From sequence record PP882707.1: a stretch of DNA of 41,129 nt; one strand, 5' to 3'. Source of the DNA: Escherichia phage vB_EcoS_P1338. The number at the start of each line of letters is the position of its first letter. The stretch's first letter is position 1. The position numbers were made by a program, and so were the translations under genes. Below the pieces are notes generated by a model. That model ran no database searches, was not told the origin of the DNA, and saw nothing but the letters and a program-made list of their open reading frames with translations. This document shows positions 1,206 through 41,129 of the stretch, in pieces.

Positions 1206-2966
1206 TTACCACTCAATGAAGCAGCTAGAGTCTCCGTCGTCCTCGTAGTAGATGTCCACGCCACCAACATCGTAGCTATGGATAGCATCACCACCAATGG
1301 TCTGTTTCTCCATGTGGTGTTCAAGGAACTCAAGGGTCATCTCTTCTTCACCTACACGGCTGTCCACAAGCATCCCTTCACGCAGGAACTCGATACCCAA
1401 TGCGATAGCATCAAGTCGGTCATCATGTGCCACAGCGCCTCGCTCACGGGTCATACGGGTCATCTGATAGAACGCACTATAGCGAACATCATGTTTCCCA
1501 TCAAGGTCACGAGCAGTCTGGTAGTCCTCACGGATAACCTCATCACGAATGACCAGCTTGTGTGCACCCATCAACGGTTCGATAGTATCGCAGATTCGCA
1601 TCTCCTTCATGCCTTTAGCACGGATTTCCTCTAAGGCACACTTGTGGTGCTTCAGGAGAATCGGAGAGAAAATCTTACCGAACATACCGTCACCGAAGTT
1701 GGACTCGTGGACTACTGTCTGTACCTTCCACTGCTTGGCCTTCTTAGCGAGCTTCTCTAGGGTAGCATCTTCGTAACCACCACGGAACCCACCGACTTCC
1801 ATCAAGTAGATATAACCGTTAAGTGAGTATAGTACTGCATACCCGGTCTCATCCTTACCACGACCACTTGGGTCAATGACCAGAATCTTAGACTGATACT
1901 CAGCGGTACGAGAAGAGCACGTATGGAACGCATGGATGTCATCACCCTTCAGACCAACGTTAGGAAGTTCCTCATTGCGGTTCTGACGGTTCGGCAACCA
2001 CTGGTAAGACAATGGGGCACGTTCAGGGTCCACAGCGCACACGATAGCGTCACGGAGGCGTAGCGGGTACTTCTCGGCATCACTAAGGTTCGGGTTAAGC
2101 ATGAACTGAAGCGTGTATCCAGCTTTACCATATTCGAGTTCACGTTCACGGAGGTCATCCATGTCGAATCGAACAGGGTCAGTAGGTTGACCACGAAGTA
2201 ACTCAAAGCCCTCATCATATTCAGCCTTAAGCATCGGAGCCAATCGGTCCCCATAGTAGAGAGCCTCAGCGTCATTACGTGGATACTGTGCTGGCCAGAT
2301 TACTGTGCTGTACCCTTTGTTATCCTCAAGTTCCTTATAGAGAGTCATCTCGGTTTGAGGTGTACCAAGGTAGATAACACGAGAGGTAGGCAGTGGCTTA
2401 AGTAACGCAGCAAACTCAGTTACCAACGTCCAGAGCTTCTCACGGGCAGAACTCGTAGAGCTATTACCGGGAACCTCAACGTCATCTGCAATGATGATGT
2501 CAGCACGGCTACCAGTTAACTGACCAGTGATACCCACAGACTTCACAGAGGGTGAGTGGTCTGGTTTCGCCAAGCCAACGTCGAAGCTAATCACAGAGTC
2601 ACGCTGTCCCGGTCGAGGTTTCAACTCAGAGAGGAACGGTAAGAGGTCGATGATGTTCTTGATGAAGATGGAGTTAGCATCCGCACGTTCCTTAGAGGCA
2701 GACACGATGAGCACCTTAAGTTGAGGGTCACGCCATAAGACCCACACGACGAACGCACAGGTGATAAAGGACTTGCCGATACCACGGAACGCCTGAAGGA
2801 TAAACTTCTTGTGGTCGCCGTTAGCGAGTGTACGTGCCATATCAATCTGACACTTGGTTGGTTTAGGTAAGTTAAGAGCCTTCCATAAGACGAACAAGAA
2901 AGCGACAAAATCACCCTTAAGTTGCGCAATGATTAACGCATTCTTAGCTTCTTGGGATTGTGACAT
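1206..2966 (-). CDS. gp19: terminase large subunit (DNA packaging protein B)
   Basis: 586 aa, same length as T7 gp19 and near-identical over long stretches by recollection ([19 protein letters not shown]..., [11 protein letters not shown]...); start overlaps the stop of the upstream spanin gene (ATGA). Confidence 0.97.
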
Positions 2967-3412
2967 TACTTAGCCTCCTTCTTAGTTTGCATTTCTTTGA
3001 TTGTATCTTGGAGCGCACGAATCCACGCATCCCCTCTTTGAGTTACTCCGATAAGACGCTTACTAAACTCTTCGTCAAGTTCGGCTCGACCATCAACGAG
3101 GCATCCACCGTTATCTTGGAGTTCTCGTGTGGTGGCTGATAGTTTGACGCGCAAGCGCTTACCATCGTTACGCAAATCATTAATGACCCTATCAGTGCTG
3201 CCCTCCAGCGCCGCAAGGTCTTCTTGGTATTGTCGTGAGATTTCGTTGATAGCAGCCTGTTTATTCTCAGTCGCCTTAACTTTCTTAATGTACTCATTGT
3301 GCACCTCCTGTTCCCATTTAGTGTTAGCTTTGTCATATCCGTGGTTATACGCAAGGGTAATTCCCAAGGCAAACGCAGCGATTATGGCGTAGCTCTTTAA
3401 ATTCTTGAGCAT
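2966..3412 (-). CDS. gp18.5: i-spanin (Rz-like lysis protein)
   Basis: 148 aa, N-terminal transmembrane segment then coiled-coil-like region; position and size match T7 gene 18.5; GGGAGG RBS. Confidence 0.85.
3043..3297 (-). CDS. gp18.7: o-spanin (Rz1-like lipoprotein) embedded in the +1 frame of the i-spanin gene
   Basis: internal ATG of track ORF 3043..3372; product [10 protein letters not shown]...SACAS... has a lipobox-like CAS motif and resembles T7 gp18.7 by recollection. Confidence 0.7.
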   Translation of the reverse strand: MSTLRKLRRLRINRLLSTKSHDNTKKTLRRWRAALIGSLMICVTMVSACASNYQPPHENSKITVDASLMVEPNLTKSLVSVLSE

Positions 3413-3469
3413 AACTACCCTCCCGTATTTTCAGATTTCACGTAGCGTTACCGTGAGTTGTGTTGAAAT

Positions 3470-3500
3470 ATCATAAAGACCACTAGATGTAGTGGCCTTG
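3470..3500 (-). promoter_or_regulatory. stem-loop between gene 18 and gene 18.5, candidate RNase III processing site (R18.5-like)
   Basis: inverted repeat GGCCACTA...TAGTGGTC in the intergenic leader. Confidence 0.3.
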
Positions 3501-3510
3501 AGTTATTCCA

Positions 3511-3780
3511 TCAGTTCAGCATGTACTTCTCATCTTCAGTGAGACCATCAGCGCCCACTAGGTTCTGGTACTCTTCGAGTCCATCTGCCAGTCCACCAAG
3601 GATGTTACGGTCTGGCTGTAACTTGGAGACTTGGAACTTGTGGCGCTCTAACAGTTTCCCGATAGCGTTGTACAGTTGAGGTGTGCGCTTATCGTCATCC
3701 TGAAGGTCTTTCAGCATACGTTGAGCCATCTCAGTGTCCAGCATCTCAAGGAATTGAATCAAAGATTTATCGTTAGACAT
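3511..3780 (-). CDS. gp18: terminase small subunit (DNA packaging protein A)
   Basis: 89 aa, same size and position as T7 gp18; ATG start. Confidence 0.8.
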   Translation of the reverse strand: MSNDKSLIQFLEMLDTEMAQRMLKDLQDDDKRTPQLYNAIGKLLERHKFQVSKLQPDRNILGGLADGLEEYQNLVGADGLTEDEKYMLN

Positions 3781-3979
3781 CTTTACCCTCCTTCTTCCAT
3801 TTGATAATCACATCGACTACCTTGGCACCAATTTGAGCCACTGTGTAGGCAATTGCAGCTACATAGAACCACTCGTTAAGGGACAGTCCGAAGAACAGAC
3901 GGGCAGCACCATCGGCTACACCTGTCCCTACAATCGGAGCAGCCTTCACTACCTCGTTATTAAAATCTAATGACAGCAT
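3773..3979 (-). CDS. gp17.5: holin (class II, T7 gp17.5-like)
   Basis: 68 aa; MLSLDFNNE...GLSLNEWFYVAAIAYTV matches T7 holin by recollection; one transmembrane segment. Confidence 0.85.
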   Translation of the reverse strand: MLSLDFNNEVVKAAPIVGTGVADGAARLFFGLSLNEWFYVAAIAYTVAQIGAKVVDVIIKWKKEGKDV

Positions 3980-4099: not shown

Positions 4100-4121
4100 C
4101 TAACCCGCCGAAACGGGTTTT
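4100..4121. terminator. short GC hairpin (AACCCG-loop-CGGGTT) just downstream of gene 17; T-rich flank is on the plus strand
   Basis: perfect 6-bp inverted repeat; on the coding (minus) strand the U-tract is weak, on the plus strand it is followed by TTTTGTTGTT. Confidence 0.25.
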
Positions 4122-4133
4122 GTTGTTATAGTA

Positions 4134-6845
4134 TTAATCAGCGTAAAGCATTAAGAACATAATAAGCTCTTCATAACGGATTCCATACCGTACACCGGCT
4201 GGTTTGGTTACTACAACCCTTTCTAGCGTTTCCGGGTTAATGTTTACTTCAGTAGATTCTTCCCATACATCCTTACACCAGAATGCATAATCCTCTGGAT
4301 TAAGTCCATGTTTAGTAAGAATAGAGCCGACCGTTTGAGCACCAACACCGAAGTGAATACGTGCAGATGCTCCCCCCTTAAGTTCTATAGCGTCAGTAAA
4401 CTTGTAGCGAATAATATTCTTACGAATTTCATTAGCCGCATCTCTTTCCGCACTCTCATTCACTGCTGGGGTTTTTTTCTTCAGTGTTTCATCGGAAGTA
4501 ACAATGGTGCTTGAAGCAGCATAAACAGCACTCCACCTGTGGCCTGCATACCCCAGCACTGTAGAGTTATCGGCAGCAGGTAAAATAGCATTATACCCTT
4601 CAATAATGAGGTCACCATTAGGGCTACCAGAAAACGATTTACCATCATAACTAGTAAGGGTGATTCCCTTAGTGCCCTCAGTAGTTGTTAACATAATACC
4701 AGCATTGGTAGCACCCAAGAGCTGAATATCACTATTATCATTACGCAAATCCTGCACAGGTGCTTCAAGTACAGTTGACGTGAATTTCCATTTCGTATCA
4801 GAAAAAAGTTCGACCGGTTGCACGTCATCCTTCTGGTACATCATGGCTTTAACACCGGAAGTTTTACGTCTTACACCGATGGCGTTTGGTTGTGAGCCAG
4901 ACCAGTTAGATGAGAAGGTAAATCCATCAAATTCCACTACAGACTCATAAGGATTGCTGGTATCGTTATTGATTGGTTCTGTAATAAAAATCCATCCCCA
5001 GTCGAAATAGTTATTATAAGTCCCTACGTTAGCATCTATCTGATACGCACGGGTGCACACCTCCCCATAGTAACCGTAGAATCTCAGGTTCCCGGCAACT
5101 TGTGAGTCTGAGCTTACGGTTTTAACCACACGCACACCACACGGTACATCTGCTGGTCCAGTTGTTTTGGTTATATTCTCACAAGAACCACCAAACACAC
5201 GAAGTGAGTCCGTGCTTTCAATCCAGAACGCACAGTTTCCCGTTACGTGAATTGGGTTGTAAATAGTGATTCTGGTGTTGTTGTTGTCGCCTGAAACACT
5301 CCGGTTGAATCTAAACCCGCAGTCAACGTTTTCAAATACTGGATTTTTTATGGTGTGATAATATGCAGCACTATTAGCCCCAAAAACTGTTGGTCCCGGT
5401 TGCAGTAACACCCCTACAGAGACGTCTGTCGCTTTTGGGTTGTTTAGCTGACAAAACTGTTGCGATACACGTGCAGTAGTTTGTGTGAGGTCTTCCGGGC
5501 TTATTGCGTATGCCACTACTTTTGTGAAACCATCTGGATTTATTACCGCAGGGTTAGTTACGATGCAGAAATCATGGCTCATTCTTAAGCATGTGATGCC
5601 AGAAGCTCCCGCTACGATTGTTGTTCCGGTGAAATCAATATACCTTGTAGACGTAACATCCTGCGTATACGAGCCATCGAATTTCATTACAAGACTTTGT
5701 GTTATGCGATATCTCGCACCTACTCTTCCTGTTAATTTACCAAACGGCACAATCTCCAACCACGACAATGCCGCCAGCATCGCGGAGGTATCATTATTTA
5801 TCCCGTCGCCAATAGCACCGAACTCTTCAAATGACTTTACTGTCGTAGCCCGATGAGCAATCTGGTCAATTGTTGCACCATGCTTTGTTAGATCAGTTCT
5901 AATAGACGCATCACCAACACTAACCCACTTCCCTAATCCAATCCCACCGGAAGTTTCAGGAGTTGAACCAGCAGGGATGTTCTTTGGAAGCGTACCATCC
6001 CAGCGGTAATACTCACCCTCCTCTTCCCACAGTAGTACCTCGTTCCAGGTTATAACGTTGAAGCCTTTCTCGAAGGAGCGACGGGTAACATATCCAATTC
6101 GAGCAGATGCCTTGATACTCTCAGCGATTCGTCGTGCTTCATCCTCGCTATCCTTAGCGTTGCCAGCATAGCTACCAGCAGATGCTGCATATTGTCCAGA
6201 AGTATTCTTGAACTGCTCGGCTTCATTCCGGAATTCATTAGCCTCATCGCGCCATTGCTTTGCGTTCGTAGCGTGGGTGCTGGACTCGTTCTTAAAGCCC
6301 TCCGCTTTATTTCTGAAAGTCTCAGCCTCATTGCGGAACTGTAGGGCCTCATTACGTGCCTGCCATGAGTTCTGGTTCATGGTCTTAAGTTGACCAAACG
6401 GAACAGCGTCTAGGTCATCCACGGCGTTCGCTAGGTTCACGATACGACGACCACGTGCATCCAAGTGACCATCATTATTGACCCCAATGGTATCCGCAGT
6501 TAGGTCTCGTGCTTCTTCAGCAACGTGAAGCGTTTGAATCTGTGCAATGTTCAGGTCATATGCGCGAAGGATTGAGCCATCAGCAAAGTCAACCAGACGG
6601 TCTGTCGCGGAGGTGAAACGACGAATCTCAATGGAGTAATATCCATCAGCAGCCGTCCATGCACGAGTTGTAGTGATTTGTGTCTTAGTGGTGAACCGAT
6701 AGTCCTGATTTAGAACCAGTTCCTTACGGTCTTTACCAATTAGAGTTACCGTCACAAACTTACGCGCTAAGTATTCAAAGGTGATTGCAAAGTCCACAGC
6801 ACCTGTTAGCGGATAAGTCATTACGGTACGAATTTTAAGAGCCAT
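4134..6845 (-). CDS. gp17: tail fiber / tailspike: T7 gp17-like N-terminal anchor, beta-helix depolymerase-like central domain, C-terminal intramolecular chaperone-like domain
   Basis: 903 aa; first ~200 aa align with remembered T7 gp17 (FEYLARKF, RLVDFADGSILRAYDLN, VNNDGHLDARGRRIVNLANAVDD); from ~aa 335 FEEFGAIGDGINNDTSAMLAAL (pectate-lyase-type motif); near aa 784 SDETLKKK resembling the Ser-Lys autocleavage motif of tailspike C-terminal chaperones. Confidence 0.9.
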   Translation of the reverse strand: MALKIRTVMTYPLTGAVDFAITFEYLARKFVTVTLIGKDRKELVLNQDYRFTTKTQITTTRAWTAADGYYSIEIRRFTSATDRLVDFADGSILRAYDLNIAQIQTLHVAEEARDLTADTIGVNNDGHLDARGRRIVNLANAVDDLDAVPFGQLKTMNQNSWQARNEALQFRNEAETFRNKAEGFKNESSTHATNAKQWRDEANEFRNEAEQFKNTSGQYAASAGSYAGNAKDSEDEARRIAESIKASARIGYVTRRSFEKGFNVITWNEVLLWEEEGEYYRWDGTLPKNIPAGSTPETSGGIGLGKWVSVGDASIRTDLTKHGATIDQIAHRATTVKSFEEFGAIGDGINNDTSAMLAALSWLEIVPFGKLTGRVGARYRITQSLVMKFDGSYTQDVTSTRYIDFTGTTIVAGASGITCLRMSHDFCIVTNPAVINPDGFTKVVAYAISPEDLTQTTARVSQQFCQLNNPKATDVSVGVLLQPGPTVFGANSAAYYHTIKNPVFENVDCGFRFNRSVSGDNNNTRITIYNPIHVTGNCAFWIESTDSLRVFGGSCENITKTTGPADVPCGVRVVKTVSSDSQVAGNLRFYGYYGEVCTRAYQIDANVGTYNNYFDWGWIFITEPINNDTSNPYESVVEFDGFTFSSNWSGSQPNAIGVRRKTSGVKAMMYQKDDVQPVELFSDTKWKFTSTVLEAPVQDLRNDNSDIQLLGATNAGIMLTTTEGTKGITLTSYDGKSFSGSPNGDLIIEGYNAILPAADNSTVLGYAGHRWSAVYAASSTIVTSDETLKKKTPAVNESAERDAANEIRKNIIRYKFTDAIELKGGASARIHFGVGAQTVGSILTKHGLNPEDYAFWCKDVWEESTEVNINPETLERVVVTKPAGVRYGIRYEELIMFLMLYAD

Positions 6846-26693: not shown

Positions 26694-27110
26694 TTAAAAT
26701 GTAGATTTATGGTAGCCCATGAAGTTCTTCGGGTCAATCACACGCAGGTTCTTGTGGTTCATCTTGTGGTACTGAATACCAGCGACTGTACCCATTGCGT
26801 CAATACGTGTCACACGGGAACACCAAATGTCAGTCCCTTCGACCTTACGGACATACCAAATATCTGCGTTGCTGGTTGAGGTGCAGAAGTCCCCAGCCTT
26901 GATGTGGGTCATCTTGTCTGCATCGAAAGTCTGCATACCAACACTACCGCTAGTGGCTTTAGGTTTCACCCATTGACCACGGGAGCGAGTCCACCCTAAG
27001 TTCTTCAGGATGTGTACCGCCGAGTCACGAGCACATTCATACTCTTTAACGTCTGCCAGTTCAGCTTCCAGTTTAGAGATTTCAGCTTCGATTACATTAC
27101 GATTACGCAT
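26694..27110 (-). CDS. gp4.7: hypothetical protein at the T7 gene 4.7 position
   Basis: 138 aa (T7 gp4.7 135), synteny. Confidence 0.7.
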   Translation of the reverse strand: MRNRNVIEAEISKLEAELADVKEYECARDSAVHILKNLGWTRSRGQWVKPKATSGSVGMQTFDADKMTHIKAGDFCTSTSNADIWYVRKVEGTDIWCSRVTRIDAMGTVAGIQYHKMNHKNLRVIDPKNFMGYHKSTF

Positions 27111-27150
27111 AGTGTTGTTCTCCCATTAGTTAGTTGAATAGATTTCATAC

Positions 27151-27200
27151 AAAAGTTAATCACGAAGGCCACCATTAAGATGACCTTTAGTTTAACTCTT
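27151..27200 (-). promoter_or_regulatory. conserved 50-nt hairpin element before gene 4.7, candidate RNase III site (R4.7-like); copy 1 of a 50-bp direct repeat
   Basis: aaaagttaatcacgaaggccaccattaagatgacctttagtttaactctt; imperfect long stem with internal loop; second copy at 34101..34150 differs at 1 nt. Confidence 0.55.
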
Positions 27201-27501
27201 ACTCTTCACATTTGTCAGCGAGCATGTTGCTCTCAGACTCCACAGCATTAGCCAGCAGAACCTGACGCACATTGTCTTCACCTACAGCAACGGAAGCAGC
27301 TACAGCAACGGAAGCCAGAAGACGACCTGCCTGTGCATCATCAAGAGTCACACGCTGTGTATGCGCCTTGGTGGACTTAGAGTCCTTCCAACGGTAGACC
27401 AGAGTGACCTTGCCATTGCGGACGTTGATGTGCACTCGACGAGCATACTGGTCAATGGTGTCGGACAGACGGATAGTGTTGCCGGGAAATTTAATAGCCA
27501 T
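27199..27501 (-). CDS. gp4.5: small protein at the T7 gene 4.5 position
   Basis: 100 aa, synteny. Confidence 0.7.
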   Translation of the reverse strand: MAIKFPGNTIRLSDTIDQYARRVHINVRNGKVTLVYRWKDSKSTKAHTQRVTLDDAQAGRLLASVAVAASVAVGEDNVRQVLLANAVESESNMLADKCEE

Positions 27502-33097: not shown

Positions 33098-34061
33098 CTT
33101 TTGTTTCCTCCATGTAGTTTACTTGGCACTGCCAGCCCTCATAAGGATTGACCCCACCGAGGATATATGTGTCAGTGTTACAGGCTTCCGTGAACTCATC
33201 CATCAACGCTTGGCTGATATTGTTAGCGGAGACTACGCGACCGGACTCTAAGAGAACCTCGAAGCCAATCACTTTGCCTTCATTAGCGAGACCTTTAGTC
33301 CCCCAATTGAGTCCAACGATAATACCGTCAGCTTCATTCTCAGGCTTCATCTTCCACCAGCCAGACTTCTTGCCACGCTTGTAGACTTCCAGCGGGTCTT
33401 TGACGACCAGACCTTCATGACCATCGGCACGGGCTTTCTCGTAGAGTTCCTGAAGTTCTACCATGTCGTAGACTTCCTTGGCTTCAGAGAGTTCCCAAGT
33501 GATTTCCGGGAAGTGTTCACTAAGAACCGGAATGAGGGAACGCACATGCTCTTGCATCAGGAGGGACATAACGCCATACTCTTTGCCTTCTACCATATCG
33601 TGATACGGCATAGCAGCATACAGAACAACCTTAAGTTTCTTAGGGTCTAAGCGGAAGTCTACTTTACTCCCCTTGAGAGGCTCTACTCCACCAATATCAA
33701 ATCCACAATTTGTCTTCTTGAGCCACTTGGTACGCAGTAGGCCAGACCCTGTGTTGAAGTCTACGCCTTTGACCATCAGTTCACCATCCAGCATGAAGCC
33801 ATCAGGGAAAATCCAGCGGTCATCTTTGAGAACATTAGCCCAGCGTTGGTCGAACCCATTAAGGTGCTCAAGCGCGGGGATGGTCTTAGAGACACGGGAC
33901 AGCCACAGGCAGTCAGCCGTATTGTCAACCACGATGTTACCACGCACACCATCATGCTTAGTGTCAGCAATCAGGTAGCCAGCTTTGTCGAGTGCTTTCT
34001 TAATGGCAGACTCAACGTAGGATACAGCTTTAAAAGGGTTAGTCTTGAATGTGATTTCCAT
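33027..34061 (-). CDS. gp1.3: ATP-dependent DNA ligase
   Basis: 344 aa; adenylation motif KHDGVRG; TNPFKAVSYVESAIKKALDKAGYLIA...HEGLVVKDP...GKKSGWWKMKPENEADG matches T7 ligase by recollection. Confidence 0.95.
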   Translation of the reverse strand: MEITFKTNPFKAVSYVESAIKKALDKAGYLIADTKHDGVRGNIVVDNTADCLWLSRVSKTIPALEHLNGFDQRWANVLKDDRWIFPDGFMLDGELMVKGVDFNTGSGLLRTKWLKKTNCGFDIGGVEPLKGSKVDFRLDPKKLKVVLYAAMPYHDMVEGKEYGVMSLLMQEHVRSLIPVLSEHFPEITWELSEAKEVYDMVELQELYEKARADGHEGLVVKDPLEVYKRGKKSGWWKMKPENEADGIIVGLNWGTKGLANEGKVIGFEVLLESGRVVSANNISQALMDEFTEACNTDTYILGGVNPYEGWQCQVNYMEETKDGSLRHPSFTCFRGVEGNRSEKI

Positions 34062-34100
34062 GATGGAACTCCTTTAGTGTGTGTCGGTTATTAAGTAATC

Positions 34101-34150
34101 AAAAGTTAATCACAAAGGCCACCATTAAGATGACCTTTAGTTTAACTCTT
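34101..34150 (-). promoter_or_regulatory. conserved 50-nt hairpin element in the ligase leader, candidate RNase III site (R1.3-like); copy 2 of the 50-bp repeat
   Basis: aaaagttaatcacaaaggccaccattaagatgacctttagtttaactctt, 49/50 identical to 27151..27200. Confidence 0.55.
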
Positions 34151-34171
34151 TCGCAATAGTGAGTCGTATTA
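34149..34171 (-). promoter_or_regulatory. T7-type promoter upstream of the ligase gene (phi1.3-like)
   Basis: minus strand TAATACGACTCACTATTGCGAAA; overlaps the gene 1.2 stop. Confidence 0.75.
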
Positions 34172-34441
34172 CTTCCAGTGCTTCATATCACTGTGAACCT
34201 TGCGGAGCCATTCAGTCTGTGCATTACAGCGAACGTCTTCGTCTGACTGTTCGAAACACTTAGCGGTCAGCATTAAGCCATTCCGTAAGACCACTCGAAG
34301 TGTCTCTCCTGCGACCATTCGTCGCTGTGCGAAGTCCTCATAACGATAAGTCTCAACGACCACATTTGCATCGTGGTCTTCTTTAAGTCTCTCGATAGCG
34401 TCTTTGTATGCCATTAAGTTACCACTGTATAAGCGACCCAT
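34169..34441 (-). CDS. gp1.2: small protein at the T7 gene 1.2 position (dGTPase inhibitor in T7)
   Basis: 90 aa; MGRLYSGNL N-terminus and C-terminal WK as in remembered T7 gp1.2. Confidence 0.85.
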   Translation of the reverse strand: MGRLYSGNLMAYKDAIERLKEDHDANVVVETYRYEDFAQRRMVAGETLRVVLRNGLMLTAKCFEQSDEDVRCNAQTEWLRKVHSDMKHWK

Positions 34442-34662: not shown

Positions 34663-37314
34663 TTAGGCAAACGCAAAGTCTGACTTCAGGATTTCTTGGA
34701 GGTCGAGAGAGCCTTTAGCTGGCATCTCAGGCATCTTGTCTAACTGTGATTCGTGTAACTGCTCGGCGAATTGCTCATAGAAGTCTGCAAGTACATCGTT
34801 CTCTTCGTAAGTGTTGACCATCGTTTCACGCACTGCTTTAAACAGGTTGCCAGCATCAGCAGGGATAGTACCAAAGGAGTCATGAATCAGTGCAAAGGAT
34901 TCCACACCGTAGACCTCATTGGAGCGGACCACAGTCATGCGCAGGTGGCTACCATCCATTGAGTGAACAAAGTTAGGTGCGATGCCTGACTCCTGTTTAC
35001 GAGCATCAATCCCGCTATCCTTGTTGGTGTTCACGGTAGGCTGTAGACGAATCTGGCCTAAGAACATTAGGTTCAAGCGGGTCTGTACTGGCTTCTTGTA
35101 TTCCTGCCAGACCGGGAAGCCATCAGGAGTTACCCAATGTACTGCGCAACGCTTGCGAAGAACCTCTTTGGTCTTCTTGTCCTTGACTTCAGCAGCTAGG
35201 AGTTTAGCCGCAGACTTCAGCCAGTTCATTGCTTCAACAGCAGCGACCACAGTCACTGTTACCGATTCCCAAATCAGTTTAGCCATATAGCCAGCCGCTT
35301 GGTTCGGTTGAGTGAACATCAAGCCTTTACCATCGTCGATAGCTGGCTGAATGGTGTCCTCTAGCACTTGGTCACGGAAGCCGTACTCCTTGGACCCGTA
35401 AGCCAACGTCATGACCGAACGCTTAGTGACCTTGCGAGTCACACCATATGCCAACCATTGACCCGCTAACTCTTTCGTTCCCAGCTTGAGCTTCTCAGTG
35501 ATTTCACCAGTGTCCTTGTTTGTCACTGTTTCCACTTCGTTATCAGTGCCGTTGATTACCGCTCCGCGGAGCATCTCGTTAACACGGTCAGCAACAATGC
35601 GATAGATGTCTTGGACTTCCTTGCTTGGCAACAGGTTAACCGCACGACCACCTACTTCATCACGAAGCATCGCGGAGAAGTGCTGAATACCAGAGCAGCT
35701 ACCATCGAACGCCAGCGGCAGAGAGCAGTTGTAGTTCATGCCGTGGTGTTGAACTCCAGCATACTCGAAGCAGAACGCGAGGAAGCAGAACGGAGAGTCC
35801 TGTTCGGCCCACCAAGTGTTGGCAATCGGGTCAGCCGCAACGCTCATTATGTTCTCATGGTTGTCCTCAATGAACTTAATGCGTTCTGCGAAGTCCACCT
35901 TGTCCACACCAGCAGTGTTAGCACCATGAATCTTCAGCCAGTAGTACCCATCGACACCAATCGGTTTACCTTTAGCGAGCGTCAGCAAGCCTTTGGTCAT
36001 GTCGTTGCCTTGCGGGTTAAACATTGGAACTGCATACACTCGACCGCGCCAGTCCATGTTCATCGGGAACCAGATAGCTTTAAACTGTGCGAACTTATTG
36101 GCTTGCCCTAACATGAACTCCATGCTCATGCGACGAGACACGCGAGCCTTCTCTTTGCGGTAGATTGCGGAGGCCGCTTTCTTCCACGCTTTGAGTGATG
36201 CCTCGTTCGTGTCGATGTCTTCAGGTTTGACAGGCAGTTCACCACGTTCGAGAGCAGGTACATCGTCAACCGGGCAATGCTTCCAGTTCACAATCTCGTT
36301 GACCACTGCCAGAACCTTCTTGTTAATCTTCCAAGGAGTATTCTGTGCGATGTTCACCGCCTTGTAAACTTCAGGCATGTACACGTCGTTGTAACGCTCA
36401 AGTCCCTTCTTGGAACCAGTACGAACCAGAGAGAGCGGCTTGCGACCAGCAGCCCAATAGCCACCACCAACCGGACTCGTCCAAGGCTTCGGGGGGACCA
36501 CGCAAGGTTGATACATCGGAGCGATTGCAGCCAGTGCACCAGCACGCTTAGATAACAGGTCAACGTATTGTTCGGTCAGTTGGATGTACTCGCCATCCTT
36601 CTCAACGTTACCAGCAAACGGTCGGTGTAACTCAACGAGACCAGTAGACCCAATGAGCAGTTCCAACATGCGTACACCAACATGAATTGACTCTTCAGGT
36701 GTCCATGTGGTCCACTTGGTTTGCAGTTGACCAGCATCTAACATCTTACCTTCAACCGCTTGCATGAATGCCTTCTTGTAGACGATACCTACGCGCTTGT
36801 TGAGTGCTTCCTGTACATGGTTCTTAAAGTGCTTCGCTTCTTCGTCACGGATGCGACCAAAACGTAGCTCATCTTCAATACTGCGACCAATCTTAGTGGC
36901 GACCGATTGAAGGTTCGTGTATTCCTCTTTGGTCAAGCAAGCCAGTGTGACCTTCAGTGTGATGAATGCAGCAGCTTCAGGTGCAACCTTCTGTACCAAA
37001 TTGTAGGCCACTGGACGCTTGCCACGCTTAGCTTCCACTTCGGTGAACCAAGTGTTCCATGCTTCAATGAACTTAGGTGCGAGAGATGACAGGAGCGGTT
37101 TAGCCACTGCGTTATCACCGAACTCACCCGCTTTGATTTGACGTTCCATTGCCTTAAGGAAACGCTTCTCGCCTTCAGTGTGCGCTTCGTGTTCTAACTC
37201 AAGCTGCGTAGCTGCAAGCTGTGCGCCGTAATGGTCAGCCAGAATGTTGTACGGCTGAATTGCGTTAGCGATGTCAGAAAAGTCATTCTTTGGTGCATTG
37301 ATTACGTTAGTCAT
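34663..37314 (-). CDS. gp1: DNA-directed RNA polymerase (single-subunit, T7 RNAP type)
   Basis: 883 aa, same length as T7 RNAP and collinear throughout; palm and specificity-loop blocks conserved (NTNKDSGIDARKQESGIAPNFVHS, ALIHDSFGT, ending SDFAFA). Confidence 0.99.
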   Translation of the reverse strand: MTNVINAPKNDFSDIANAIQPYNILADHYGAQLAATQLELEHEAHTEGEKRFLKAMERQIKAGEFGDNAVAKPLLSSLAPKFIEAWNTWFTEVEAKRGKRPVAYNLVQKVAPEAAAFITLKVTLACLTKEEYTNLQSVATKIGRSIEDELRFGRIRDEEAKHFKNHVQEALNKRVGIVYKKAFMQAVEGKMLDAGQLQTKWTTWTPEESIHVGVRMLELLIGSTGLVELHRPFAGNVEKDGEYIQLTEQYVDLLSKRAGALAAIAPMYQPCVVPPKPWTSPVGGGYWAAGRKPLSLVRTGSKKGLERYNDVYMPEVYKAVNIAQNTPWKINKKVLAVVNEIVNWKHCPVDDVPALERGELPVKPEDIDTNEASLKAWKKAASAIYRKEKARVSRRMSMEFMLGQANKFAQFKAIWFPMNMDWRGRVYAVPMFNPQGNDMTKGLLTLAKGKPIGVDGYYWLKIHGANTAGVDKVDFAERIKFIEDNHENIMSVAADPIANTWWAEQDSPFCFLAFCFEYAGVQHHGMNYNCSLPLAFDGSCSGIQHFSAMLRDEVGGRAVNLLPSKEVQDIYRIVADRVNEMLRGAVINGTDNEVETVTNKDTGEITEKLKLGTKELAGQWLAYGVTRKVTKRSVMTLAYGSKEYGFRDQVLEDTIQPAIDDGKGLMFTQPNQAAGYMAKLIWESVTVTVVAAVEAMNWLKSAAKLLAAEVKDKKTKEVLRKRCAVHWVTPDGFPVWQEYKKPVQTRLNLMFLGQIRLQPTVNTNKDSGIDARKQESGIAPNFVHSMDGSHLRMTVVRSNEVYGVESFALIHDSFGTIPADAGNLFKAVRETMVNTYEENDVLADFYEQFAEQLHESQLDKMPEMPAKGSLDLQEILKSDFAFA

Positions 37315-37344
37315 TGTTGCCTCACGTTGTTAAGAAAGTTTATC

Positions 37345-37378
37345 TATAAAGGCCAGCAGTCAGTGCCGACCTTGAAGA
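37345..37378 (-). promoter_or_regulatory. hairpin between gene 0.7 and gene 1, candidate RNase III site (R1-like)
   Basis: minus strand AAGGTCGGCA-CTGAC-TGCTGGCCTT, ~10-bp stem with two G-U pairs. Confidence 0.4.
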
Positions 37379-37387
37379 TACACCTTA

Positions 37388-38491
37388 TCAGCCCATAAGA
37401 TGTGCGTCAATCAGTTTGTCAATCATCAGTGGTGCGCCAGCTTGGATAGCCAGACCGTCAGCCACTTGCCACTTGAAGCCGTTCACTTGGTCAACCTTGC
37501 GTACCGTTGCGTTGCCATTGCGAAGCCGGAAGTCATGCCGAACCGACCCCATGAGTATCTCAGCGCGGCGCTCATTTCTTTCGATTGCACCACGTTCCCT
37601 ACGGATTGCCATAAAGTGTAAGCGGTCACGTTTAGCCACACGTTCGGCGTGTTTACGGTTACGCTTGCGGCGCTTCATGTTGGCCTTGCGGTTGATGCGG
37701 AACGTGCCGTTCAGGTCACGCCTTGCCTTACGGTTGCGACACCGTTCAATGATGCGCTCGTTAGCTATCGCCTCGACCTCGGCAATCAGTGCATCAGGGT
37801 CTAAAGGGAAACCGTCCTCACGTTCACTGTCATGGGAGAAACTAACCGGGTCAGTGATGTACGGGACATCGTTGTCATCGAACATAATGTTCCCGTTGTG
37901 CATGTCGAAAGATGCAATGCCGTGGAAGAACTCACGAATCATCTTGCATGTCTCGATGAACTCCCTGCTAACGAACTCTTCGTACCAATCAGCATCACTG
38001 CCATAGCACTCTATGAACTCCTGTGCAGCACTCGCATATTTTGCGTGAGTGTCATTAGCGTATCGGTCGCAACTGTTCAAATGGTCCAATACAACCGTAT
38101 AGCAACCCGCATGACGTGCTACGTGATAGACGTTAGGGATACCCGCTCGGCCTTGATGCATCCTACAGAATGCAGTGTATGCAGCGCCTGAATCCTCTTT
38201 CTTAAAGCCAACCTTAATGACTCGACCCGGTAACATTTCGTGCGAGTAGGCCGCGCTGAAGTGACCATTGCCTAACATGCGGAAACCTGCATCGCACATC
38301 AGTGCACCCAATGTGTGCCACCAGTCTTGATACTCCAAGCCATTTGAGCCATCAGTATCGTTGCCATCGCTTGTCTCACCGTTCACGATGTCAGCAGCCA
38401 GTGCAACCAGAAGAGTCTGGCGCTTGTCCAGTTCGCTAATCGGGAGTGACTTGATGATTGCCAGACGTGCCTGAATGTCGGTGTAGTTCAT
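37388..38491 (-). CDS. gp0.7: serine/threonine protein kinase / host transcription shutoff protein
   Basis: 367 aa; HQDWWHTLGALMCDAGFRMLGNGHFSAAYSH...VIKVGFKKEDSGAAYTAFCRM...IASFDMHNGNIMF...VPYITDPVSFS matches T7 gp0.7 by recollection. Confidence 0.9.
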   Translation of the reverse strand: MNYTDIQARLAIIKSLPISELDKRQTLLVALAADIVNGETSDGNDTDGSNGLEYQDWWHTLGALMCDAGFRMLGNGHFSAAYSHEMLPGRVIKVGFKKEDSGAAYTAFCRMHQGRAGIPNVYHVARHAGCYTVVLDHLNSCDRYANDTHAKYASAAQEFIECYGSDADWYEEFVSREFIETCKMIREFFHGIASFDMHNGNIMFDDNDVPYITDPVSFSHDSEREDGFPLDPDALIAEVEAIANERIIERCRNRKARRDLNGTFRINRKANMKRRKRNRKHAERVAKRDRLHFMAIRRERGAIERNERRAEILMGSVRHDFRLRNGNATVRKVDQVNGFKWQVADGLAIQAGAPLMIDKLIDAHLMG

Positions 38492-38525
38492 TAGATTGTG
38501 TCCTATTTAGTTAAACTTTAAGAGA
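38476..38525 (-). repeat. copy 1 of a repeated translation-initiation cassette (leader + ATG + first codons) heading gene 0.7
   Basis: core cattagattgtgtcctatttagtt shared with 38769..38792 and 38951..38974; extended ~50-nt match to the copy at 38938..38992 including codons MNYTD. Confidence 0.8.
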
Positions 38526-38570
38526 TAGAGAGAAGAGTGTTAATGTGGTTAACTTCAATAATCTTGATTT

Positions 38571-38771
38571 TCACCTTACAATCTCTGCGTCCAATACTGA
38601 TACTCTAACTAATATCCCAGCGCCATTTTTAACTATGAATCCGTCTGAATTTGGCGCTATTTCAAAAACAAAATATTCTTCACCTGATTTAAGTAAGTAT
38701 TCATCAATATCAATTCTAGGTTTATTATTTCTTGGTTTGAATTTAATAAATAGCGGTCGTTCGTTAATCAT
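38571..38771 (-). CDS. hypothetical 66-aa protein, strongly AT-rich gene headed by cassette copy 2
   Basis: MINERPLFIKFKPRNNKPRIDIDEYLLKSGEEYFVFEIAPNSDGFIVKNGAGILVRVSVLDAEIVR; about 32 percent G+C by hand count against roughly 50 percent for the flanking genes. Confidence 0.55.
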   Translation of the reverse strand: MINERPLFIKFKPRNNKPRIDIDEYLLKSGEEYFVFEIAPNSDGFIVKNGAGILVRVSVLDAEIVR

Positions 38772-38800
38772 TAGATTGTGTCCTATTTAGTTTAAGAAAG
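38769..38800 (-). repeat. copy 2 of the repeated translation-initiation cassette
   Basis: cattagattgtgtcctatttagtt followed by a divergent leader. Confidence 0.8.
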
Positions 38801-38953
38801 AGAATTGAGGATTAAACGCGCTTCTTTACATGCCTTTGCTACCTTTCTGGCGGGTATCCTCTTCAGGTGCAATGCCTTCATTAGAGTCTCGTTGGTAGCA
38901 CCATATGCCAGTGTGTACAGAACTTTCTTAGTTAAACTATCGGTGTAGTTCAT
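38792..38953 (-). CDS. hypothetical 53-aa protein headed by cassette copy 3, sharing the MNYTD start of gp0.7
   Basis: hand-derived ORF MNYTDSLTKKVLYTLAYGATNETLMKALHLKRIPARKVAKACKEARLILNSLS; first 15 coding nt identical to gene 0.7. Confidence 0.4.
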   Translation of the reverse strand: MNYTDSLTKKVLYTLAYGATNETLMKALHLKRIPARKVAKACKEARLILNSLS

Positions 38954-38992
38954 TAGATTGTGTCCTATTTAGTTAGTTAAACTTTAAGAGAG
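38938..38992 (-). repeat. copy 3 of the repeated translation-initiation cassette
   Basis: gtgtagttcattagattgtgtcctatttagttagttaaactttaagagag; differs from copy 1 by a 4-nt insertion. Confidence 0.8.
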
Positions 38993-39247
38993 AGCGTTCA
39001 ATGTATTGGTTAATGCTTGCTCGAGTGCTGCGAGCTTCTGCGCTTTTAGCTTGGCCTTTCGTCTATGCCATGCAGCCCGCTCCTGTTCCTTGCGCCTTTC
39101 TAGGTTGTTCTCGCGCCAAGTTCTCACGATACGCCTATTTGCTGCATTGAGTGTGCCATTAGACCTATAGCCTTTCTTCAGCGCTTTATTCTGCGCCCCT
39201 GCGTCCAGAGCGTGTACCAAGTTTGCGGCGTTAATGTGTTGCAACAT
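38984..39247 (-). CDS. hypothetical basic, Ala/Lys/Arg-rich early protein
   Basis: track ORF 38984..39256 (GTG) trimmed to the first ATG; GGTAGGTG Shine-Dalgarno-like; 87 aa. Confidence 0.5.
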   Translation of the reverse strand: MLQHINAANLVHALDAGAQNKALKKGYRSNGTLNAANRRIVRTWRENNLERRKEQERAAWHRRKAKLKAQKLAALEQALTNTLNALS

Positions 39248-39428
39248 AGAAGACACCTACCTTGTTAGCCTTAAAGCGCCCGTTGCGTTCACGGACTGTG
39301 AATCGTGGTAGAAAGCCATACTTCAGGTGCGAGAAGTTAGCCTTGTGTACCTTGAGACCCTTTGTGAAGTCCTTCAGGAAGTACAGCGTGATTAGAGTGT
39401 AAACGAGTGCGACAAATACGTATAACAT
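39231..39428 (-). CDS. hypothetical 65-aa early protein with N-terminal transmembrane helix
   Basis: ATG preceded by AAGGTG; MLYVFVALVYTLITLYFL hydrophobic start; overlaps neighbouring ORFs in other frames. Confidence 0.45.
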   Translation of the reverse strand: MLYVFVALVYTLITLYFLKDFTKGLKVHKANFSHLKYGFLPRFTVRERNGRFKANKVGVFYVATH

Positions 39429-39564
39429 GTGGTGTCACCTTATAGAGTGCAAAGAGAGTTATTAATAGTGCGACGATGCCTAAGTTTGTGATGCCTGTGA
39501 TGTGCTTAGAGCCGCCTGTTACCTGCCATCCTGTGAAGAACCATCCAGACCAGTTAGTGAACAT
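39337..39564 (-). CDS. hypothetical 75-aa early protein with a central hydrophobic segment
   Basis: ATG inside the gene 0.4 3' end with GAGGA 9 nt upstream; ITNLGIVALLITLFALY hydrophobic stretch; 3' third overlaps the next ORF. Confidence 0.45.
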   Translation of the reverse strand: MFTNWSGWFFTGWQVTGGSKHITGITNLGIVALLITLFALYKVTPHVIRICRTRLHSNHAVLPEGLHKGSQGTQG

Positions 39565-39727
39565 TTAGTTTGTCCTCATCATTGTCAAGTGCAATTGCTT
39601 TGTTGTTGTCGTACAGTTCTTTTAGCTGGGCCATTGCGAGTCCCCAATCGAACCCGCAACGCACCATGTCACTATAGAACAATACAGTTTGAGCGGTCAG
39701 ACCGTATTGCGTGGTGTTGTTAGCCAT
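39554..39727 (-). CDS. gp0.4: gp0.4-like small protein (FtsZ inhibitor in T7)
   Basis: 57-aa ORF found by hand (under the track's 60-aa cut-off): [47 protein letters not shown]..., close to remembered T7 gp0.4; ATG overlaps the Ocr stop (TAATG). Confidence 0.75.
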   Translation of the reverse strand: MANNTTQYGLTAQTVLFYSDMVRCGFDWGLAMAQLKELYDNNKAIALDNDEDKLNVH

Positions 39728-40080
39728 TACTCTCCATCCTCCTCGTACTCTTCGACTTCCTCAAGATACTCGTTCAGTAAGTCTTCTGCGTCCTCCCAAA
39801 TGTCGATTGTGAGTTGCTCATAGATACGCGCTTGCAGGATACGGATAACGTCTTTGGTGTCCGGCATCAGACCAGAGTCTTCGAACTCAAGGTCAATGCC
39901 TTCGCTTGCCATTACACTGAAAATGTCGCTGTAGTAGTGCGGAACAGCATTATCAGCCACCATATGCACTGCATCGTGCAGGTCATCAGCGTCACGAATG
40001 TCATCATAACGGATGTTTTCTTTCAGCATTTCGTAAGCGTGGTCGAAAACGTTGTGATAAGTCATGTTAGACATAGCCAT
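39727..40080 (-). CDS. gp0.3: Ocr, DNA-mimic anti-restriction protein (inhibits type I R-M; also BREX in T7)
   Basis: 117 aa, same length as T7 Ocr and near-identical by recollection (MAMSNMTY...[44 protein letters not shown]). Confidence 0.95.
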
Positions 40081-40104
40081 TGTGTGTTACCTCATTGTGT
40101 GTGA

Positions 40105-40160
40105 TTAGTAGTGAATATCATAAAGGGCACCTTGCGATACCCTTGAGTTATCCGCTACGT
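40105..40160 (-). promoter_or_regulatory. RNase III processing site upstream of gene 0.3 (R0.3-like)
   Basis: minus strand TAGCGGATAACTCAAGGGTATCGCAAGGTGCCCTTTATGATATTCACTA matches the remembered T7 R0.3 region almost base for base. Confidence 0.7.
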
Positions 40161-40426
40161 GTGTACACTCAGTTACCGTGTCAACGATGTCGCCACACTC
40201 TACCATAACAACCATTCTTATGGTCTAAGGAATTACGGCGGGTTTTGTATGTCAGTTTTACTTTCATGGTAGTTCCTATTTTGTAGGTTTGCCTTACAGA
40301 CTACTTTGATTTGTTTACCGTGTCTGCATACTCCAGTAAACGGTGCTATCCGTAGCGAGTATCCGGCAGGTTTCGCAGTTCCTATCCGTTCTCTCTTTTT
40401 GCTGACTCGTTGTCAGCTTGTGGTAC

Positions 40427-40455
40427 ATCGTACCGTGTTTACTGCATGTTGTCAA
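40427..40455 (-). promoter_or_regulatory. host sigma70 early promoter A3
   Basis: minus strand TTGACA-17 nt-TACGAT within GGTTGACAACATGCAGTAAACACGGTACGATGTACC, near-identical to remembered T7 A3. Confidence 0.8.
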
Positions 40456-40551
40456 CCATCTTGTTTCGCTTTGTGTGCCGTGGTGCGCTTAAGTCACCTA
40501 GAAGACACCGTGCTCCAGTGTTGACGTTACTAGTGTTACCTAGCGTTGTGT

Positions 40552-40581
40552 ATCTTACTACATGTTACTTCGTGTTGTCAA
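40552..40581 (-). promoter_or_regulatory. host sigma70 early promoter A2
   Basis: minus strand AAAAACAGGCATTGACAACACGAAGTAACATGTAGTAAGAT, -35 TTGACA and -10 TAAGAT as in remembered T7 A2. Confidence 0.8.
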
Positions 40582-40678
40582 TGCCTGTTTTTCGTATGAC
40601 TTATCAGGCTGTCTACTTGACCACTTGACTAGTGGCATCTCAGCTATCCGGTGTTACCGTGTCGCCTTGATGTGATGA

Positions 40679-40706
40679 ATAATACACTATCTAATCTTAG
40701 AGTCAA
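40679..40706 (-). promoter_or_regulatory. host sigma70 early promoter A1
   Basis: minus strand TTGACT-16 nt-TATTAT. Confidence 0.65.
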
Positions 40707-40791
40707 TACTTAAAGTAACAAATAGTCGTCTTTAAGTAGTCTTTAAGTTATCCCTATAAGGAAGGGAATAGTAATAAGACTATAAACAACC

Positions 40792-40814
40792 ATTCCCAAT
40801 AGTGAGTCGCATTA
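40792..40814 (-). promoter_or_regulatory. T7-type promoter at the phage left end (phiOL-like)
   Basis: minus strand TAATGCGACTCACTATTGGGAAT. Confidence 0.7.
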
Positions 40815-40839
40815 GCTGTATGGTCTTTAAGGCTGGTCT

Positions 40840-41129
40840 AATAGTGGTAACGATAGGTGTCTATAGACTGAAGGCACCGACTGAAGGTTAACATAAGGAG
40901 AGGCAGCCATAAGGATAGACATAAGGTTAGCGTAGCTAATAAGAGGTGACATAAGGTGTTAACTCTAAGAGGAAACATAAGGTGATTACAGATAGGGACA
41001 CAGAGAGGACTACATATAGTGGTCATAATGTCCCCCCACACACCATATCTAGTGGTAACACCCAAAGTTAACCCAATGTCTCACATAAGGTTAGCGGAGC
41101 TAACAAGGATTGACATTAAGTGAACCATA
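40840..41129. repeat. array of short direct repeats (ACATAAGG units) at the phage left end, including a block resembling the T7 left terminal region
   Basis: acataagg recurs at least six times; minus-strand GGGTGTTACC...CTCTCTGTGTCCCTATCTGT matches remembered T7 left-end sequence. Confidence 0.45.

Follow-up and report, generated by a model that had tools for sequence, protein, structure and literature searches.

The open reading frame of 66 codons at positions 38571-38771 (minus strand) of Escherichia phage vB_EcoS_P1338 (PP882707.1), hereafter orf66, lies in the early region of a T7-like phage. It is a horizontally acquired accessory gene and a good candidate for an anti-defence gene of an already familiar kind. 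It is very probable that orf66 is a real gene of Drexlerviridae origin that was captured once, with duplication of a translation-initiation region (TIR) and placement in the early operon, and that its history includes exchange across genera and recombination specific to the phage studied here. The initial annotation had presented the ORF as recently acquired by horizontal transfer and as a candidate inhibitor of a host defence or other host protein. The first of these proposals was right and is documented in detail below. The second is a reasonable hypothesis, and an inhibitor role is plausible because the position, distribution, selection, and predicted fold of orf66 all fit it.

The window, by which we mean the whole 41,129-nucleotide stretch that was analyzed, is a full-length T7-like genome whose genes are read from the minus strand. 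Among deposited sequences, Berlinvirus phages come closest to it; over the 21 kb compared, they align across about 83% at about 92% identity. Positions 1-1098 and 40544-41129, at opposite ends of the window, are contiguous in one of the contigs examined (L010). The window therefore appears to be a circularly permuted full genome. No exact terminal repeat of 20-400 nt was found at its ends. The early genes are arranged in the order Ocr, gp0.4, 0.5, 0.6A/0.6B, a 53-aa ORF, orf66, and the gp0.7 kinase. This region is mosaic, in that a Berlinvirus-like backbone is combined here with T7-type Ocr and gp0.4, and the relatives JSS1, ETEP21B, BSP161, and P694 carry a T3-type SAM hydrolase at the Ocr position. 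The features on which the analysis depends are the following, in the direction of transcription.

40427-40706, minus strand: three strong sigma-70 promoters, equivalents of A1-A3, positioned at 40706, 40581, and 40455, each matching 10/12 consensus positions in a promoter scan
39727-40080, minus strand: Ocr
39554-39727, minus strand: gp0.4
38984-39428, minus strand: 0.6A/0.6B
38954-38995, minus strand: TIR copy C, the end of the type-I 0.6B gene plus intergenic sequence, serving the 53-aa ORF
38792-38953, minus strand: 53-aa chimeric ORF, MNYTD of gene 0.7 joined to a type-II 0.6B C-terminal module (PHROG 10380)
38772-38822, minus strand: upstream cassette arm, the 3' end of the type-II 0.6B frame plus TIR copy B, delimited with ETEP21B and the T7-like contigs
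38571-38771, minus strand: orf66, a member of PHROG 29417, supported by its open frame, composition, dN/dS, identity to vB_Ec-G8, and predicted fold
38492-38570, minus strand: downstream cassette arm, consisting of donor codons (~38546-38574), a TC tract (~38520-38538), and TIR copy A for gene 0.7, delimited by alignments with G8, PC127, and BSP161
38461-38491, minus strand: first 31 nt of gene 0.7, carried along as part of the cassette, as judged from the T7-like contigs
37388-38491, minus strand: gene 0.7, encoding a Ser/Thr kinase and host shut-off protein, annotated so in PC127 and JSS1, with PF27024 matched by homologues
34663-37314, minus strand: gene 1, T7-type RNA polymerase

A promoter belonging to orf66 itself was considered and rejected; apart from the A1-A3 equivalents upstream, promoter-like matches in the region are no more frequent than in shuffled sequence. 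A search of 37300-41129, which includes the stretch between A1-A3 and gene 1, revealed no terminator-like site. We infer that orf66 is transcribed by read-through from A1-A3 as part of the early operon served by host RNA polymerase. Its product would appear within the first minutes after infection, together with Ocr, gp0.4, gp0.6, and gp0.7. The initial annotation had placed orf66 next to Ocr, gp0.4, and the gp0.7 kinase. Gene 0.7 is indeed adjacent, but 0.8-1.3 kb separate orf66 from Ocr and gp0.4, which are located upstream in the operon.

The composition of orf66 sets it apart from the rest of the genome. The coordinates and translation given in the initial annotation are exact, and its hand count of roughly 32 percent G+C is borne out by a value of 31.8% (64/201), compared with 47.9% for the whole window. 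The exact comparison of G+C and codon usage that it had suggested makes orf66 a clear outlier. Relative to 47 other genes, in which G+C is about 48%, its GC z-score is -5.7; GC3 is 20.9% versus about 49% in the same genes (z = -5.3), and self-CAI is 0.55 versus 0.72 (z = -2.4). Codons that are rare in E. coli make up 10 of the 66 in orf66 versus 3.7% elsewhere. No other place in the window is as poor in G+C, and the 0.37% of 201-nt segments that are equally low all fall there. The flanking values are 52% for gene 0.7, 42% for the 53-aa ORF, and 50% for 0.6B. Other low-GC stretches (4117-4326, 27025-27239, 33983-34202, and 40545-40906) were examined as possible foreign genes and rejected, since they correspond to the end of a tail-fibre gene, intergenic stretches, and the promoter region.

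The source of orf66 can be traced to another family of phages. Its sequence is 94.8% identical at the nucleotide level and 97% identical at the amino acid level to that of Escherichia phage vB_Ec-G8, and this homology spans the ATG to ~8 nt past the stop codon (to about 38565). All non-T7-like carriers with enough flanking sequence to judge are T1-like siphoviruses of about 45 kb (Drexlerviridae), distributed among Rogunavirinae, Braunvirinae, and unclassified relatives. In these phages the gene always occupies one native slot, in which helicase and VRR-NUC genes precede two or three small ORFs, and orf66 is followed by a 41-aa ORF, further small ORFs, and a DNA-repair exonuclease. A 73-aa ORF directly precedes orf66 there and the 41-aa ORF directly follows it, and the start and stop of orf66 overlap those of its neighbours. 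Its location in G8, SU57, phiEB49, and Jk06 is upstream of the exonuclease and away from the holin. The neighbours in the window differ, being the 53-aa ORF and gene 0.7, with ~8-25 nt of the 41-aa gene retained. The gene is also AT-rich in its native context (31% within a neighbourhood of 42% G+C). The family is evidently old and vertically inherited in Drexlerviridae, yet accessory there, where it was found in 15 siphovirus records.

The structure of the locus in the window records how the gene arrived. The 20-mer AAATAGGACACAATCTAATG is present in exactly three copies, at 38489-38508, 38769-38788, and 38951-38970, all on the minus strand, where 0.01 copies would be expected. This agrees with the earlier remark that the ORF is bounded by cassette repeats. 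Each copy ends in a start codon, namely those of gene 0.7, orf66, and the 53-aa ORF, and the TIR repeat measures 24-50 nt, its extended copies being 36-50 nt long. An RNase III site or terminator hairpin in these repeats was ruled out by RNA folding, which gave no stable hairpin (z-scores +1.25, +1.16, and -0.39).

Relatives with an empty site define the limits of the insert. In ETEP21B, the TIR and gene 0.7 come immediately after a type-II 0.6B module, and JSS1 (type-I 0.6B) and BSP161 (0.6A only) likewise run straight into gene 0.7. The insert lies exactly between the TIR and the ATG of gene 0.7 where the genes are adjacent in these three phages, and by the same comparison it starts exactly after ..AATCTAATG. 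The left junction is at the start codon, where recipient ..TCTAATGA meets donor ..TCTTATGA, and microhomology extends over 7/8 positions (donor ..TTTCTTATGA, recipient ..AATCTAATGA). The right junction falls a few codons into the next gene of the donor, whose ATG is now GTG. In the 3' part of the insert, these donor codons are followed by ~20 nt of uncertain source, by an intergenic remnant of BSP161 type whose TC tract is variable, and by the second TIR. On the other side, the sequence at 38772-38822 immediately precedes gene 0.7 in ETEP21B, recurs unchanged or almost unchanged before orf66 in all 8 of the 8 T7-like contigs examined, and ends where the homology block shared with Kayfunavirus ends, at 38822. 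The TC-rich tract (~38520-38538, minus strand) varies in length by 1-6 nt among near-identical cassettes (L008-L015) and behaves like a slippage-prone microsatellite. Because its length shifts the frame between contigs, the 18-codon remnant that starts with GTG is non-coding and not conserved.

We conclude that a T7-like phage captured orf66 once from Drexlerviridae and that the capture duplicated the ribosome-binding region of gene 0.7. The duplicated target sequence is suggestive of template switching or of unequal exchange in co-infected cells. As an outcome, orf66 gained a ready-made, unstructured SD-ATG region, and gene 0.7 kept an identical one. Further recombination in the phage of the window added the third TIR copy, which is present in this phage alone, and the chimeric 53-aa ORF. 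The parts of this ORF are fused at the microhomology ACAC(C/T)GA, and it is independently translated downstream of type-I 0.6B; relatives reach the type-II 0.6B module only as a frameshift or fused extension of 0.6A. Because a type-I 0.6B gene is accompanied by a chimeric ORF with the type-II module, the window carries both 0.6B types. No gene with exactly the product of the 53-aa ORF is on record elsewhere.

The protein belongs to a small family. orf66 is a full-length member of PHROG 29417 (E = 9.7e-31, residues 1-66 of the 66-position profile), which carries no functional annotation. The initial annotation had recognized no family, which is true for Pfam and NCBIfam (no match at E <= 1) but not for PHROGs, where the match to PHROG 29417 reaches E = 1e-30. 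The remote-homology search that it had recommended thus found this family but no characterized relative in Pfam, NCBIfam, or PDB sequences, and the PDB sequence profiles gave nothing below E = 0.7. Other PHROG 29417 members (JK_67P of Jk06, gp17 of phiEB49, SU57_00058, EcG8_018 of vB_Ec-G8, and UUB18476.1 of PC127) are 64-100% identical to orf66 and have the same length of 65-66 aa and the same invariant residues. Whereas the siphovirus members occupy their native slot, orf66 here belongs to the early operon of a T7-like podovirus and is preceded by a ribosome-binding region that was borrowed.

Among 5.8 billion proteins, the family comprises 15 clusters at 90% identity, to which the orf66 protein is 64-94% identical, and two more distant ones (about 17 in all). 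A profile search of 1.84 billion representatives found only 3 true members. Matches to repeat proteins in that search (P0018-P0021) were discarded as spurious, since they reflect low-complexity beta-hairpin repeats. In 50,697 phage records, the carriers are 2 of the 78 matching T7-like records and 15 siphovirus records. IMG/VR contains one locus with the orf66 protein, that of phiEB49, and an exact 26-mer of orf66 was not found in the JGI metagenomes. The same protein has already been deposited as a 'hypothetical protein' under UUB18476.1 (PC127) and UVK80603.1. The orf66 sequence does not occur in the supplements to two accessory-gene screens by Silas et al., and a literature search found no publication that mentions PC127 or the 0.6-0.7 slot.

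A frameshifted variant of orf66 (P0025) was also observed, which is 55 aa long (...FIVKKWRWDIS) and occurs on 6 contigs, the longest of 40.6 kb. A +1 slip in the A5 run of GTTAAAAATGG could account for the frameshift, and this variant suggests recurrent or inherited inactivation of the gene in some phages. Its presence on 6 contigs shows that orf66 can be lost and is dispensable under some circumstances.

The orf66 product contains 10 K+R and 10 D+E residues, with a pI of 6.2 and a net charge of about 0, which refutes the earlier description of the protein as acidic. Its charges are unevenly placed, with a basic stretch at residues 1-19 (+6/-1) and an acidic one at residues 20-66 (+4/-9). Inspection of the sequence by eye revealed no signal peptide, no membrane segment, and no catalytic motif. 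Structure prediction, which the initial annotation had called for, was run with AlphaFold2 on an alignment of 18 sequences and gave a pLDDT of 77.7 (63-78 across five models). In the model, five strands form a barrel, residues 12-31 make up a long loop, and a 3-10 turn precedes the final strand. Five strands, a loop after strand 1, and a 3-10 turn are the characteristics of an SH3-like small beta-barrel, and the result agrees with the earlier expectation of a beta-rich protein. An independent BFVD model of the Jk06 homologue matches the orf66 model with a TM of 0.78. Within the family, the FKPRxNKPR arm and residues Y25/L27/K28 are conserved, and the KNGAG turn is invariant or nearly so. The product is thus predicted to be a stand-alone SH3-like beta-barrel with a basic N-terminal arm. 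This fold is generic, and a predicted barrel of this kind would be equally compatible with DNA or RNA binding.

In the mechanism that we consider, the 7.6-kDa cytoplasmic product would be an SH3-like barrel whose long, conserved loop, at the position of the RT loop, bears the FKPRxNKPR arm. Because orf66 has no catalytic motif, stoichiometric binding would be its most likely mode of action. We infer a host factor as the partner from the placement of the gene among early host-takeover functions, from purifying selection, from its occurrence in two unrelated families with shared enterobacterial hosts, and from its patchy distribution. Perhaps orf66 binds and neutralizes such a factor, the most plausible being part of an anti-phage defence to which both phage types are subject, a proposal that we hold tentatively and at somewhat less than even confidence. 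The acquisition history and the host-factor binder, taken together as a whole, form the best explanation available and come close to an even probability. It is rather doubtful that orf66 founds a new SH3-fold counter-defence family that neutralizes enterobacterial immunity against both T1-like siphoviruses and T7-like podoviruses, with the cassettes in three genera recording ongoing adaptive introgression via a portable ribosome-binding-site arm.

Several findings run contrary to these proposals. There is no sequence or profile match to any characterized protein (Pfam, NCBIfam, PDB sequences, and the 1.84 billion representatives), which speaks against the host-factor reading, and a characterized anti-defence homologue of orf66 was likewise absent from Pfam, NCBIfam, function-bearing PHROGs, PDB sequences, and the fold search. 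Furthermore, the native Drexlerviridae slot belongs to a replication and recombination module and to no obvious counter-defence island, which speaks against a role in counter-defence. The generic nature of the fold, the absence of orf66 from the Silas et al. supplements, its rarity, and the frameshifted variant count on the same side.

This native context, together with the basic arm, would instead suit an SH3-like DNA or RNA binder in phage DNA or RNA metabolism, comparable to Sso7d, the C-terminal domain of retroviral integrase, or a KOW domain. Such a protein might protect or organize phage DNA ends or intermediates, or it might modulate a nuclease or helicase. We regard this as unlikely. 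The T7-like insertion is in the class I host-takeover operon and outside the class II genes for DNA metabolism, and orf66 is the sole gene captured from the Drexlerviridae block and functions without its native neighbours. The net charge of the protein is about 0 and the barrel itself is acidic, and no significant match to nucleic-acid-binding families was found.

A different role would be competition between phages, in which an early protein excludes or handicaps a co-infecting phage, or resists such exclusion. orf66 has moved between two virulent families that share hosts, a transfer that requires co-infection, and both its expected early expression and its patchy distribution would fit this role. 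However, the protein has no similarity to known exclusion proteins, and neither a signal peptide nor a membrane segment is evident by eye. The probability of this reading is low.

Returning to the history of orf66, its spread among T7-like phages bears on whether it is of any benefit to them. An identical orf66 protein is encoded on at least 10 contigs, and all 8 of the 8 contigs examined (L008-L015, including PC127) have T7-like early regions with the same left and right junctions. Because all T7-like copies share these two junctions, we favor a single capture. The backbones are of Berlinvirus in this window, PC127/PC192, L010, and L014 (L013 was not typed) and of Kayfunavirus in L008 and L011. 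L012 and L015 are Teseptimavirus-type, with an identical protein and the same junctions before a Teseptimavirus-type gene 0.7. The 362-nt cassette (38461-38822) is 96-97% identical in Berlinvirus and Kayfunavirus backbones, and in L008 it is 97.3% identical versus 69.5% for the RNA polymerase gene. This pattern indicates that the 362-nt unit has been exchanged recently across genera, either under selection or by efficient recombination at conserved arms. The exchange between genera would probably have proceeded via the arms of the cassette. Together with a Drexlerviridae donor and homology to vB_Ec-G8 that begins at the ATG, the shared junctions and a cassette that is 97% identical across backbones of ~70% identity uphold the earlier view that the gene was recently acquired.

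The gene co-occurs with Ocr or SAMase, and with or without the kinase. In the Kayfunavirus cassettes (L008 4202-4343 and L011 1846-1989), the 31 nt of the Berlinvirus gene 0.7 become a 17-codon stump, MNYTDIQARLGYSNTWE and a stop. L008 and L011 lack a kinase gene there, and the stump is followed by a 108-aa ORF with a type-I 0.6B-like N-terminus (..NLVHALDA..).

The cassette arms are the most conserved non-coding sequences of the region and are present in all relatives. It might therefore be supposed that orf66 is of little or no benefit and that the cassette spreads because its arms recombine readily. The frameshifted variant on 6 contigs, the rarity of orf66 among sequenced isolates, and its many rare codons would agree with a mere passenger. 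Several observations make this quite improbable. The substitutions among T7-like copies are all synonymous, in copies that were retrieved as encoding the identical protein, and the close cluster variants are 1-2 residues apart, as judged from protein sequences only and whatever the carrier phage. An identity of 97% within a backbone of 70% needs either very recent transfer or selection. Moreover, a neutral 280-nt insert would be expected to be lost from a tightly packed 40-kb genome.

Six coding sequences from the two phage families give dN/dS values of 0.05-0.12, with one pair at 0.18. The differences from the PC127 copy are all synonymous (4/4), as are 8/10 of those from the vB_Ec-G8 copy, and the length is steady at 65-66 aa even in a homologue with 43% identity. 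A Shine-Dalgarno sequence, AGGA, is located at 38781-38784, 9 nt 5' of the orf66 ATG, and the leader is unstructured. At the composition of orf66, an open frame as long as this one arises by chance with p of about 0.002 (35/20,000 shuffles), and an Rfam search of 36500-41129 gave no match. By these measures, orf66 is a genuine protein-coding accessory gene under purifying selection. The contrary reading, by which no gene is present and the low G+C content marks a regulatory DNA element or an ORF that arose by chance, has in its favor a weak promoter-like match within orf66 (38741-38713, 9/12 positions) and is effectively refuted by the number of such matches in the region, which equals that of shuffled sequence, by the chance-ORF probability, by substitutions that follow codon positions at low dN/dS, by conservation over the full length down to 43% identity, by a consensus SD at the right spacing, and by the lack of any Rfam match.

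We therefore return to orf66 as a captured gene whose product may bind a host factor. If it disables such a factor, a short protein would be effective on its own in two phage types that differ greatly. It could then be used to probe for an as yet unrecognized defence or vulnerability of E. coli and Salmonella hosts, and it would be a useful part for the engineering of therapeutic T7-like phages. Whatever its function, the locus shows with unusual clarity how a virulent phage has domesticated a foreign ORF in nature. The pattern of this domestication comprises a junction at the start codon, a duplicated resident translation-initiation region, and spread between genera via conserved arms. This makes the 0.6-0.7 slot a place to seek other accessory genes. 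Current concepts are left unchanged, because variable and uncharacterized genes are expected in the early regions of T7-like phages.

The initial annotation had called orf66 a moron. In the strict sense (Juhala/Hendrix), a moron is an autonomous unit with its own promoter and terminator. Like morons, orf66 is an extra gene between genes that are adjacent in relatives, with deviant composition, patchy distribution, and horizontal transfer. Unlike them, it has no promoter or terminator of its own and would be read through within an operon, using the duplicated translation-initiation region of gene 0.7, and its carrier is a virulent phage, which precludes lysogenic expression. The term thus applies loosely but not strictly.

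The PeSL elements of other phages provide a second comparison. PeSLs pair an early promoter with a stem-loop. Two reports on T4-type phages describe PeSLs as mobile regulatory cassettes composed of promoter-terminator motifs (PMC2839356, PMC4122927). As in PeSL cassettes, short repeated regulatory sequences at the orf66 locus flank variable small ORFs and offer homology for shuffling; there are three TIR copies, and the 362-nt cassette is common to distant T7-like genera. In contrast to PeSLs, the repeat here is an SD and start-codon region with no above-chance promoter and no stable hairpin, and it is confined to one locus. The TIRs found in IMG/VR are single-copy only, and no multi-copy arrays were found there.

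T1-like phages encode at least one other small protein of this fold. DUF7244 is a stand-alone SH3 protein encoded beside the lysis genes of Drexlerviridae (PMC13164509). Like orf66, it is about 60-66 aa long, has a stand-alone SH3-like fold, and is encoded by T1-like phages. A relationship between the two was nevertheless rejected: orf66 has no match to PF23896 at E <= 1, and its hhalign probability against the DUF7244 protein of G8 is 0.04%, whereas the positive control EcG8_024 matches PF23896 at 2e-29. vB_Ec-G8 has both genes, with DUF7244 adjoining the holin and orf66 located 2.4 kb upstream, before the exonuclease (the regions concerned are 2389-3816 and 5657-5857 of L002). A Foldseek search against viral models also gave SH3-like matches to several other uncharacterized proteins of ~50-65 aa, encoded by the phages AHS24, IME347, CEB_EC3a, 2725-N35, and FP. 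These phages bear T1-like (vB_EcoS-type) names, and 2725-N35 is itself a carrier of orf66. T1-like phages seem to hold several unrelated mini-SH3 genes.

A further comparison is with the neighbours that orf66 has acquired. The class I early proteins of T7 (Ocr, gp0.4, gp0.6, and gp0.7) are small and, in characterized cases, have non-essential roles directed at the host. orf66 differs from them in having no sequence or fold relationship to any of them, but it shares their operon, their small size, and, as far as the arrangement of the genes suggests, their timing.
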